Origin: Escherichia phage CL1
Direction: 5' to 3' (one strand)
Sequence record: OK040806
DNA: 64,000 bases
Shown here in pieces: positions 38,880-40,833 of the stretch (the stretch's first letter is position 1; each line of letters starts with the position of its first letter). Under the pieces are notes generated by a model that was not told the DNA's origin, did no database searches, and saw nothing but the letters and a program-made list of their open reading frames with translations. Both the position numbers and the translations under genes were made by a program.

Positions 38880-39344
38880 TTACTTTGGATATACACTGTC
38901 AAGATAAATGTCAGCTTCCATTCTTCGTCTATTTTTAAGACCGTTTGAAGTGACCTTCTGACCTTTGACTGTGACCTTGTTCCACCACTGCATAGCTTCT
39001 GCACAACCCACCTTATTACCAGCATTGTGACGCTTGATAAATGTAGAATCCTGCATAGCTGTGATACCGATGTTGTATGTTTCACTTACAAGTGCATCGA
39101 ACTCATTCTGAGAAGTTGGAGCCTTGATAGCTTTATTCACTGCTGCAACAAACTTCTCAACATCTGCGAGAAGATACTGTTCGGCTTGTTCAGCAGTAAT
39201 TTTCATACCCATCTTAACAGGTTTTCCGTCAATACGGATTGTACCATACCCGATTGTTGGGATTCCGGCAGAGTCTTTATAAGCCTCTAACTTCAGACCT
39301 TCAAAGAACTTAATGGCTTCTAAACCTTTTCTTGAGAGTTGCAT
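38880..39344 (-). CDS. T4-type lysozyme / endolysin (glycoside hydrolase family 24)
   Basis: 154 aa; catalytic-triad context LEAYKDSAGIPTIGYG (Glu/Asp/Thr) as in T4 lysozyme. Confidence 0.8.
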   Translation of the reverse strand: MQLSRKGLEAIKFFEGLKLEAYKDSAGIPTIGYGTIRIDGKPVKMGMKITAEQAEQYLLADVEKFVAAVNKAIKAPTSQNEFDALVSETYNIGITAMQDSTFIKRHNAGNKVGCAEAMQWWNKVTVKGQKVTSNGLKNRRRMEADIYLDSVYPK

Positions 39345-40477
39345 TATGCCTCCCCTGCTGGGTTAACTGTAACTGTTGCCGCATTAGATGTTACAGAGCC
39401 ACCCGCACCAGTCACTACGCAAGTGTAGCTTCCTGCATCAGCAGCAGTTGCACCTTCTTTGGTGTAAGTTGCAGTCGTTGCGTCTGGGATGTTTTCCTCA
39501 CCCTTCTTCCACTGGTAACCTGTCGCACCTGTTGCCACAACGTTGAGTGTCAATGTCTCACCTTCAGTGATTTCTTGATTAGTTGGCTGTTGAGTGATTA
39601 CCGGAAGTGCTTTAACAGTTACTGTTGCAGGGATAGAAGTAACGGAACCACCTGCACCTGTTACAACGCAAGTATATGAACCTGCATCTGCTGGTAGTGC
39701 GCCAGACTTGCTATAAGTAGCGTTTGTAGCTGAAGGAATATTAGAGCCATCTTTCTTCCACTGATAGCCCGTTGCACCTGTGGCAGTCACTTCCAAGCTA
39801 ATGTTGCCACCCTCGTTGATGGTCTGGCTAGAAGGTTGCTTGGTAATAACAGGTAGTGCGTTAACAGTAACTGTTGCTGCATCTGAGGTGACACTTGTCC
39901 CACCCTCTCCAGACACAACGCAAGTGTATGAGCCAGCATCAGAAGGAGCTACCGACTGTTTTGTGTAAGTTGCAGAAGTGGCACTTGAGATATCCTCACC
40001 ATCCTTCTTCCATTGATACCCAGTGGCATTAGTTGCGAGAACACTTAGGGTAAGTGCTCCACCTTCATTGACTGTTTGGTTTGTTGGCTGCTGAGTAATT
40101 ACTGGTGGCTTAATGGCATCCTTCAACTTAGCATTCAACATTGAGAACGGCTTAACTCTTGCCAACCATTCACAATACACTGTGTCAACATCTTTACCAT
40201 TGATGATTGCATACTGTAAATCCATGAAGAAATCAGCAGTTCTCATCTGTGCACCAACACTGTAAAGAAGTTCATCACTGAAAGGAACTTTGTAGTCTGG
40301 TTTGTAGTCAAACTTCTCAACCTCTGCAATATCAGCTTCAGGCCAATATGAGCTATAGGTGAGTGGTAAAATAGCTTCTTGATATGTTCTAAAATCATAT
40401 CTCTTACCAGCCTTTACATTTGCAACGAAACCTTTTACAAATTCTTTGAAGTCTGGGTAAGTCTTTGCTTTAATCAT
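39344..40477 (-). CDS. protein with N-terminal domain and three tandem Ig-like repeats
   Basis: Three ~90-aa repeats of PVITxQPxxQTxNEGGxxxLxVxATGATGYQWKKDG..AGSYTCVVTGAGGSVTS. Confidence 0.6.
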   Translation of the reverse strand: MIKAKTYPDFKEFVKGFVANVKAGKRYDFRTYQEAILPLTYSSYWPEADIAEVEKFDYKPDYKVPFSDELLYSVGAQMRTADFFMDLQYAIINGKDVDTVYCEWLARVKPFSMLNAKLKDAIKPPVITQQPTNQTVNEGGALTLSVLATNATGYQWKKDGEDISSATSATYTKQSVAPSDAGSYTCVVSGEGGTSVTSDAATVTVNALPVITKQPSSQTINEGGNISLEVTATGATGYQWKKDGSNIPSATNATYSKSGALPADAGSYTCVVTGAGGSVTSIPATVTVKALPVITQQPTNQEITEGETLTLNVVATGATGYQWKKGEENIPDATTATYTKEGATAADAGSYTCVVTGAGGSVTSNAATVTVNPAGEA

Positions 40478-40833
40478 TTCTTTTTAGCCTCTAAACGTGC
40501 GTTTAATCTAAAATAGCCTTTATGCTGCGGAGATACGTCGCCAACAACGATACCTTCAACCTTATAACCCTTACCAATTACATACTGGATATCCATAAGA
40601 AATGTACCAAGCCCAACAATGTGGAACATTGGGTACAATAACTTATCTGAATCTGGGAGATTAATATCTGGGATGTAGGTAGGTTGTTTACTAGTGGGTG
40701 TGATATCTTCTTCAGGCCATTTACTAAGTCTCCATGTTAAAGGTGATGCAATAACATCTTTAAGATTATATCTATCACCTTTCTCCACGGAATTGATATA
40801 GGATTGTAGGAAGCAATAAAAGTCTTTTTGCAC
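40474..40833 (-). CDS. short paralog of the N-terminal domain of the Ig-like repeat protein
   Basis: FLMDIQYVIGKG and WPEEDI align with FMDLQYAIINGK and WPEADI of 39344-40477; GTG start at 40833. Confidence 0.45.
   Translation of the reverse strand: MQKDFYCFLQSYINSVEKGDRYNLKDVIASPLTWRLSKWPEEDITPTSKQPTYIPDINLPDSDKLLYPMFHIVGLGTFLMDIQYVIGKGYKVEGIVVGDVSPQHKGYFRLNARLEAKKK

Follow-up and report, generated by a model that had tools for sequence, protein, structure and literature searches.

An Ig-repeat capsid decoration gene of Escherichia phage CL1 and its conserved neighbor, a paralog predicted to comprise the capsid-binding domain only

Introduction

Decoration proteins that carry immunoglobulin (Ig)-like domains have been solved on the capsids of Bas63 (Escherichia phage JohannRWettstein) and Shigella phage Sf14 (a Mooglevirus). 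In both phages, the capsid is T=9 and a monomer sits at the center of the 60 hexamers that adjoin pentamers (PMC12609058, PMC11821841). The Bas63 protein, Hex-Dec, is an ordered monomer in the hexamer centers and occupies facet-edge hexamers only (PMC12609058). Its Sf14 counterpart, gp20, is restricted to pentamer-proximal hexamers, binds through its N-terminal 118 residues, forms salt bridges from Arg79 and Arg107 to Asp221 of three capsid-protein subunits, and was seen in virions by mass spectrometry (PMC11821841). Here, we describe the corresponding locus in a 64,000-nucleotide stretch of Escherichia phage CL1 (sequence record OK040806; the whole stretch is referred to below as the window), in which a minus-strand gene at positions 39344 to 40477 is assigned to the Hex-Dec family and is preceded by a short paralog of its N-terminal domain.

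Two better-known decoration proteins resemble Hex-Dec in part. T4 Hoc is likewise a monomer at hexamer centers in which a small capsid-binding domain carries several Ig-like domains in a row, but the capsid-binding domain of Hoc is C-terminal, so the domain order is reversed. The capsid-binding domain (CapBD) of Hex-Dec is larger than that of Hoc, topologically distinct from it, and pseudo-twofold symmetric (PMC12609058). T5 pb10 (PDB 5LXK, 8ZVI) has the same domain order as Hex-Dec and a homologous Ig domain (E values of 5e-12 to 9e-12); it differs in having one Ig domain and a capsid-binding domain that has no match in Hex-Dec.

Results

Identity of the Ig-repeat protein

Positions 38800 to 41500 of the window share 99.9% identity with Escherichia phage C600M2 (Ounavirinae, Felixounavirus) and 90 to 95% with about 120 other Felix O1-like phages. 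On nucleotide identity, we place the window in Felixounavirus as essentially Escherichia phage C600M2.

The 377-amino-acid protein encoded at 39344 to 40477 matched two sets of PDB chains over nearly its full length in a phmmer search, 9NCF_S (Bas63 Hex-Dec; E value of 3.5e-299) and 9C2D_S/9C3A (Sf14 gp20; E value of 3.4e-171). The alignments begin at residue 1, and the CapBD in the window is ~97% identical to that of Bas63. Arg79 and Arg107 are present in the window protein and in all eight of the Hex-Dec sequences that were aligned. The protein combines the features by which we recognize the family, namely, a homologous CapBD, the Arg79/Arg107 pair, and a C-terminal string of I-set Ig domains, and we assign the gene as the Felixounavirus Hex-Dec, the orthologue of Bas63 Hex-Dec and Sf14 gp20. 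Its parts are as follows.

39344-40477, minus strand: Hex-Dec gene, 377 amino acids (PDB matches; PHROG 3995, E value of 1.9e-207; identical to C600M2_120)
40112-40477, minus strand: CapBD, residues 1 to 122, with Arg79 and Arg107 (alignment to the modeled part of 9NCF_S and 9C2D_S)
39854-40105, minus strand: Ig-like (I-set) domain 1, residues 125 to 208 (Pfam Ig_3, Ig_2, and I-set; repeat family D1)
39605-39853, minus strand: Ig-like domain 2, residues 209 to 291 (Pfam; DNA repeats)
39347-39604, minus strand: Ig-like domain 3, residues 292 to 377, equivalent to the fourth domain of Bas63 (Pfam; DNA repeats; PDB alignment)

A preliminary description of this DNA, made from the sequence alone, had suggested that the Ig domains are displayed on the particle surface. 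Display on the capsid is borne out by the close homologues, which were modeled at hexamer centers by cryo-electron microscopy (cryo-EM) and detected in virions by mass spectrometry. Virion presence, which that description treated as decisive for the pair, holds for the homologues of Hex-Dec but not for the short paralog, which has gone undetected in virions.

The closest likeness is to Bas63 Hex-Dec (9NCF_S), which has a near-identical CapBD, the R79/R107 pair, and I-set Ig units, and which lies in a locus of the same makeup (paralog, Hex-Dec, and endolysin, outside the structural module); the Bas63 protein has four Ig units, whereas that of the window has three. Sf14 gp20 (9C2D/9C3A, chain S) also consists of a CapBD and three Ig domains and has an upstream paralog, gp21, but it belongs to another genus and its Ig domains are more diverged (nonsynonymous divergence [dN] of ~0.28 in Ig domain 1). 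PHROG families annotated as "Hoc-like head decoration" matched Hex-Dec at residues ~121 to 306, which is the Ig region only, and no sequence match to Hoc was found outside that region. Similarly, the PDB matches to pb10 (8ZVI_a, 5LXK_A) were restricted to the Ig domain (query residues 131 to 207), and the protein does not have an anchor of the pb10 type. From these comparisons, Hex-Dec is predicted to work like T4 Hoc but does not belong to the Hoc family.

Ig repeats and their copy number

Following the ~122-amino-acid N-terminal domain, Hex-Dec has three Ig-like units of 83 to 84 amino acids. Matches to Pfam Ig_3 (E value of 3e-34), Ig_2 (7.5e-28), and I-set (2.8e-25), each in three stretches, together with the PDB sequence matches, back the Ig fold that had been proposed. 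The units are also visible as DNA repeats (39399 to 39604, 39648 to 39853, and 39900 to 40105) with a spacing of 249/252 nucleotides. Three repeats are thus present, as first described, but they are not near-identical, sharing 70 to 71% identity in protein and 62 to 69% in DNA. The Ig part of the protein is acidic, with a pI of ~4.5.

The number of units varies among relatives, as the preliminary description had anticipated, from one to four: one in many phages (proteins of 210 amino acids), two in Felix O1, Moogle, SUSP1, and mio, three in the window, AYO145A, and Sf14, and four in Bas63. Aligned with Bas63, the window is short by exactly 249 nucleotides and Felix O1 by exactly 498, and the Bas63 unit that is absent from the window is its third. 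Copy-number variation of this kind was already recorded in the structural papers on Bas63 (PMC12609058) and Sf14 (PMC11821841). It is the gain and loss of entire Ig units that is recent at this locus.

We made two further observations on the repeats. The Ig region (39347 to 40105) matched the repeats of the Aureispira grappling-hook protein GhpA (PDB 9FLP) in 15 stretches with an E value of 4.6e-75, far exceeding the match of the same units to eukaryotic Ig domains. Two proteins from short metagenomic contigs, P0060 (138 amino acids) and P0081 (149 amino acids), are Hex-Dec variants in which little follows the CapBD, as the sequence breaks off near the beginning of the first Ig unit; unless these truncations are assembly errors, the main gene would also exist in Ig-less forms.

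The short paralog: gene model, fold, and sequence

The gene upstream of Hex-Dec has been named several times in other phages (Sf14 gp21, Bas63 bas63_0125, Felix O1 ORF37, VpaE1 ORF40c) and corresponds to PHROG 4463 ("unknown function"). Its features in the window are as follows.

40474-40846, minus strand: CapBD-only paralog, 123 amino acids in relatives (homology and open reading frames [ORFs] of relatives); the window itself has a 119-amino-acid ORF with a GTG start at 40474-40833
40825-40829, no strand: homopolymer of five T residues (plus strand), four in C600M2 and AYO145A, which causes an apparent frameshift (alignment)
40474-40477, minus strand: ATGA overlap of the paralog stop and the Hex-Dec start, a layout typical of translational coupling

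The preliminary description had taken the GTG ORF as the whole gene. In every relative, however, the protein is 123 amino acids long, and the true start is the ATG at 40846, which is preceded by an AAGGA ribosome-binding site. From this start, the proteins of relatives begin MKAKSAKDF, parallel to MIKAKTYPDF in Hex-Dec. With the extra base removed, the window paralog is 100% identical to gp115 of Salmonella phage BPS17W1. Because the window departs from C600M2, one recoded patch aside, only by homopolymer miscounts (see below), the frameshift is most likely a sequencing artifact.

The initial claim that this gene is a diverged copy of the N-terminal domain only agrees with a BLASTP alignment at 35% identity over 114 amino acids (E value of 1e-15). 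In a phmmer search of the entire PDB, the paralog matched the two solved homologues and nothing else (E values of ~3e-10), and the PHROGs of the paralog and Hex-Dec cross-matched reciprocally at ~1e-15. An AlphaFold2 model built from 22 sequences (mean predicted local distance difference test [pLDDT] score of 64.6; predicted template modeling score of 0.65) was compared with the PDB using Foldseek; the only meaningful matches were 9NCF_S and 9C2D_S, over the full length and with template modeling scores of 0.61 to 0.63, the next-best match having an E value of ~1. Neither Pfam nor PADLOC gave any match to the paralog.

When 14 paralogs were aligned with 8 Hex-Dec proteins, both families shared 28 invariant columns, and 38 differences were fixed between the paralogs and the CapBDs of Hex-Dec. 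The fixed differences are concentrated at residues 73 to 80 and 92 to 113, the segments that bear Arg79 and Arg107. Position 79 is Gly in all 14 paralogs and also in the deep-branching protein P0099, while position 107 is Gln (as in the window copy), His, or Arg; Lys109 is retained. The paralog therefore does not have the anchoring arginine pair, and it has no Ig domain to display, as the protein stops after the CapBD. Within the paralog, conservation is highest in the rewritten stretch, LLYPMFHIVGLGTFLMDIQYVIGKGYK, which looks like a re-specified surface rather than the product of decay. Taking the alignment and the model together, we interpret the gene as a real CapBD-only duplicate with the predicted fold of the family and an altered contact surface.

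We rejected a role for the paralog as a holin or other membrane protein; the highest Kyte-Doolittle mean over 19 residues was 1.34, below the usual threshold of 1.6, and its fold is a soluble one. Net charge was also discarded as a property of the paralog, since it is inconsistent among relatives (pI values of 5.1 to 9.1).

Distribution, age, and selection

Both copies were found by tblastn in ~232 of 252 Ounavirinae records. The paralog was never found without Hex-Dec, either in these records or in the phage collection, whereas Hex-Dec occurs without the paralog in 19 to 20 records of the collection. An intact paralog ORF of 122 to 124 amino acids is present in ~230 records from three genera and in a deeper lineage. 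The order of the 196-amino-acid gene, paralog, Hex-Dec, and lysozyme is kept in Felixounavirus, Mooglevirus, Suspvirus, and an 87-kb metagenomic contig (L011), in which the paralog is only ~45% identical. The overlap between the paralog stop and the Hex-Dec start is also kept, at 1 to 8 nucleotides, in Sf14, Moogle, SUSP1, Felix O1, Bas63, and L011.

The ratio of nonsynonymous to synonymous divergence (dN/dS) of the paralog was 0.11 to 0.18 (0.14 pooled) at dS values of 0.3 to 1.6; for comparison, it was 0.06 for the CapBD, 0.14 for Ig domain 1, and 0.14 for the lysin. Synonymous divergence between genera was near or at saturation. These ratios point to purifying selection on the paralog.

A profile search run exhaustively over 1.84 billion representative proteins returned only 12 clusters and thus no informative distant relatives. 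The distant clusters are single genes that encode a CapBD followed by a Big_2-like or Ig-like domain or by a Lys/Ser-rich tail. Where their flanks are visible, the neighborhood is the same (DUF2828/DUF5681 genes and a gene of ~185 amino acids, with a lysozyme in L013 to L015), and in these lineages there is a single CapBD gene with no tandem paralog. The preliminary description had read the duplication as recent domain shuffling, a view that does not agree with synteny across three genera and a metagenomic phage, near-saturated dS, and purifying selection. From the synteny, the saturated divergence, and the distant single CapBD genes, the duplication is old and arose in the ancestor of the enterobacterial Ounavirinae.

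In 19 records (mio, REP5-12, SP116, Z31, Tf, fBSPA4, and others), one shared internal deletion has removed most of the paralog, leaving its ends, and Hex-Dec is intact; the paralog is thus dispensable. Both genes are fragmented in Shigella phage vB_SflM_004, which we did not use as evidence of co-loss because its assembly quality is uncertain. GenBank record GU169904.1 ("Staphylococcus phage SA1," 147 kb) contains at ~143190 to 143558 a Felixounavirus segment with the paralog and Hex-Dec at ~85% identity, which suggests that the record is a mixed or chimeric assembly.

Expression and virion inventories

In Felix O1, reverse transcription-PCR placed the maximum of both ORF36 (Hex-Dec) and ORF37 (paralog) at 60 min, alongside the morphogenesis genes, and that of the lysin (ORF35) and ORF38 at 25 min. 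The virion proteome of the same phage lists gp36 but not gp37, although proteins of 11.7 to 13.7 kDa and low-copy proteins were detected (PMC3185647). In VpaE1, the only virion proteins reported as new relative to the Felix O1 list are gp54, gp58, and gp68, and the paralog is not among them. The cryo-EM papers on Bas63 (PMC12609058) and Sf14 (PMC11821841) neither mention nor model the paralog, and in both studies, the remaining hexamers are without density.

A search of the Sf14 supplement for gp21 returned only the unrelated gp21 of SPP1. Gene-number and method terms gave no match in the paper on wV8, and the paper on UAB_Phi87, which does not mention structural proteins, gave none for either gene. 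No decoration protein with an anchor-only paralog was found in a search of the literature, and we know of no such paralog for T4 Hoc.

Layout of the locus and neighboring genes

The arrangement that had been described, with the Ig-repeat gene, its short neighbor, and the lysozyme all on the minus strand, was recovered in full (ORFs at 39344-40477 [377 amino acids], 40474-40833 [119 amino acids], and 38880-39344). The three genes are bounded on both sides by terminator-like hairpins; the flanking features are as follows.

38880-39344, minus strand: GH24 endolysin (Pfam Phage_lysozyme, E value of 1.9e-40); its own ATG overlaps the Hex-Dec stop (TAATG)
38853-38870, minus strand: terminator-like hairpin past the endolysin gene, closing the three-gene unit (hairpin search)
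40870-40885, minus strand: terminator-like hairpin between the upstream 196-amino-acid gene and the paralog (terminator annotated in AYO145A)

As originally noted, the pair is not part of the structural module. Its genes run on the other strand, the distance being ~9 kb to the terminase gene and ~15 kb to the capsid gene, with a tRNA cluster between Hex-Dec and both of these. In Bas63, the Hex-Dec gene is likewise set apart from the structural module, by more than 10 kb (PMC12609058).

Directly upstream of the paralog, at 40894 to 41484 (minus strand), is the gene of a 196-amino-acid protein (PHROG 4034) for which searches of Pfam, PDB, and PADLOC gave no matches. A gene of 183 to 205 amino acids stands directly upstream of the CapBD gene in all lineages examined except L017/L018. 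On the plus strand at 42104 to 43973, divergent from the Hex-Dec block and adjoining the tRNA cluster, are genes for a DUF5681 protein and a DUF2828/vWFA ("RNA-binding," Ro-like) protein, an arrangement that is kept even in the most distant CapBD-carrying lineages (the L011, L013, and L019 loci). In the distant metagenomic relative (L011, 11510 to 12369; L012, 8967 to 9826), a Gad1-family (anti-Gabija) gene stands ~4 kb downstream of the lysozyme and in one small-gene block with it.

Probable sequence errors and a recoded patch

Positions 1 to 49719 of the window differ from C600M2 by no substitutions and by eight single-base differences in homopolymer length. The C600M2 record begins with the sequence that corresponds to positions 49720 to 64000 (terminase, portal, protease, and capsid genes and the tape measure), and here the two differ by one homopolymer and one recoded patch. 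The nine single-base length changes are at 4765, 21417, 26283, 33061, 38847, 40825, 42467, 44072, and 60690. Three of them affect coding sequence, namely, the homologue of C600M2_59, the 5' end of the paralog, and the DUF5681 protein, which is 145 amino acids long in the window versus 123 in C600M2. Over 64 kb, this pattern is typical of sequencing error.

The recoded patch lies at 63446 to 63655 (plus strand), in the gene following the tape-measure gene. It has 53 substitutions relative to C600M2 across 70 consecutive codons, 100% of them synonymous, and uses one single codon per amino acid (CTG, ACC, CGC, CAG, GGC, GTG, AGC, GCG, etc.), which we take to be the commonest codons of E. coli. 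Its GC content is 0.45 in the window versus 0.34 in C600M2. The patch looks like a designed, back-translated segment, engineered or synthetic, rather than natural divergence.

Discussion

We consider our explanation of the locus probable as a whole, namely, that it encodes a Hex-Dec decoration protein together with an old, CapBD-only duplicate; a more tentative part of it is that the paralog serves as a late accessory of decoration outside the virion. One Hex-Dec monomer would plug its 122-amino-acid CapBD into each of the 60 pentamer-adjacent hexamer centers of the T=9 capsid, where salt bridges from Arg79 and Arg107 to Asp221 of the major capsid protein would hold it in place. By comparison with T4 Hoc and T5 pb10, the string of three acidic I-set Ig domains would be flexible and project outward, and it would probably provide weak, multivalent adhesion to glycans or surfaces or modulate the aggregation of particles; adhesion as such is suggested by analogy with T4 Hoc. 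Whole Ig units would be gained and lost through recombination between repeats.

The paralog, made late and with the CapBD fold but an altered contact surface, would not stay on the mature capsid. We speculate that it tunes or assists the loading of Hex-Dec, acting on Hex-Dec itself or on the capsid, in a state or at a site that differs from the mature peripentonal hexamer. That the paralog is a late, non-virion accessory of capsid decoration is a tentative proposal, to which we would give somewhat less than even chances. The narrower proposal of a dedicated late factor absent from the virion (a chaperone, placeholder, or competitor) that sets how and where Hex-Dec loads is unlikely as it stands. 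To our knowledge, phage decoration proteins have so far not been reported to have an accessory of this kind.

Several points weigh against this explanation. Loss of R79 argues against binding at the same site and in the same mode as Hex-Dec, and a role for the paralog in decoration is one that we infer. Its absence from virions relies on negative proteomic and cryo-EM results from relatives, and a weak binder could be lost during CsCl purification. The structural model of the paralog is of moderate confidence (mean pLDDT, 64.6), and its copy in the window is frameshifted; a genuine frameshift would mean that this phage has an inactive gene or one that lacks its N-terminal part. From the natural deletion lineage, it is clear that growth does not require the paralog. 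As for Hex-Dec, the authors of the Bas63 study call the role and essentiality of decoration proteins unknown (PMC12609058), and for CL1 we infer its occupancy from orthologues and the adhesion of its Ig domains by analogy.

An alternative hypothesis is that the paralog has taken on a new function that does not involve the capsid, for instance, an interaction related to the host or to lysis, and has kept only the scaffold of the CapBD. The 38 fixed differences, concentrated in the capsid-contact segments of Hex-Dec and strongly conserved among paralogs, would fit such a change, as would the failure to find the protein in virions and its place in one unit with the endolysin. Yet the paralog peaks with the morphogenesis genes and not with the lysin (25 min), never occurs without Hex-Dec, and has neither a transmembrane segment nor a match in Pfam or PADLOC, and we regard this alternative as rather unlikely.

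The paralog might instead be a virion component, either an Ig-less plug on the 20 facet-center hexamers that Hex-Dec leaves empty or a competitor for the sites of Hex-Dec with low or labile occupancy, and so set the density of displayed Ig strings. Its CapBD fold, its expression with the late structural genes, and a codon overlap with Hex-Dec that suggests coupled translation are all in keeping with this idea, as are the confinement of Hex-Dec to peripentonal hexamers and the retention of Lys109 and basic residues near position 107. Against it, both cryo-EM studies show the other hexamers without density, the Felix O1 virion proteome does not list the protein despite its detection of low-copy proteins and proteins of 11.7 to 13.7 kDa, and the anchoring R79 is Gly in every paralog. 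We judge a virion role to be quite improbable.

It is very improbable that the paralog is a decaying, functionless duplicate and that the window copy has truly been inactivated by mutation, despite the frameshift itself and the deletion of most of the gene in a lineage of 19 phages. A dN/dS of ~0.14 across near-saturated synonymous divergence, an intact ORF of 122 to 124 amino acids in ~230 records of three genera and a deeper lineage, and transcription in Felix O1 all speak against decay, and the differences between the window and C600M2, the recoded patch apart, are homopolymer miscounts that point to sequencing error.

We attach practically no credence to the reading of the 377-amino-acid protein as a tail protein. 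This label stands in GenBank, PHROG, and UniRef and on chain S of 9C2D/9C3A in the PDB (9NCF_S is labeled "Immunoglobulin-like domain protein"); most records carry it because Felix O1 virion proteomics, which established only that gp36 is in the virion (44% coverage), called it "major tail protein" (PMC3185647). Two independent cryo-EM reconstructions (PDB 9NCF and 9C2D) refute the reading by placing the homologue at capsid hexamer centers.

The "tail protein" label in the databases is therefore wrong and needs correction. The main gene can be regarded as already explained; its product is a decoration protein with three Ig domains, and for two relatives the structure of the anchor has been solved. 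Beside it in Bas63, Sf14, and Felix O1 lies an overlooked gene that is conserved, expressed late, and limited to the anchor, and that neither structural paper discusses. For comparison, phages with a natural deletion of it (mio, REP5-12, SP116, Z31, and others) are already available, and they offer a cheap, direct test of the proposed role in loading. Hoc-like proteins are widely used as display platforms, and a modulator of their loading, if our proposal is true, may be of some practical value.

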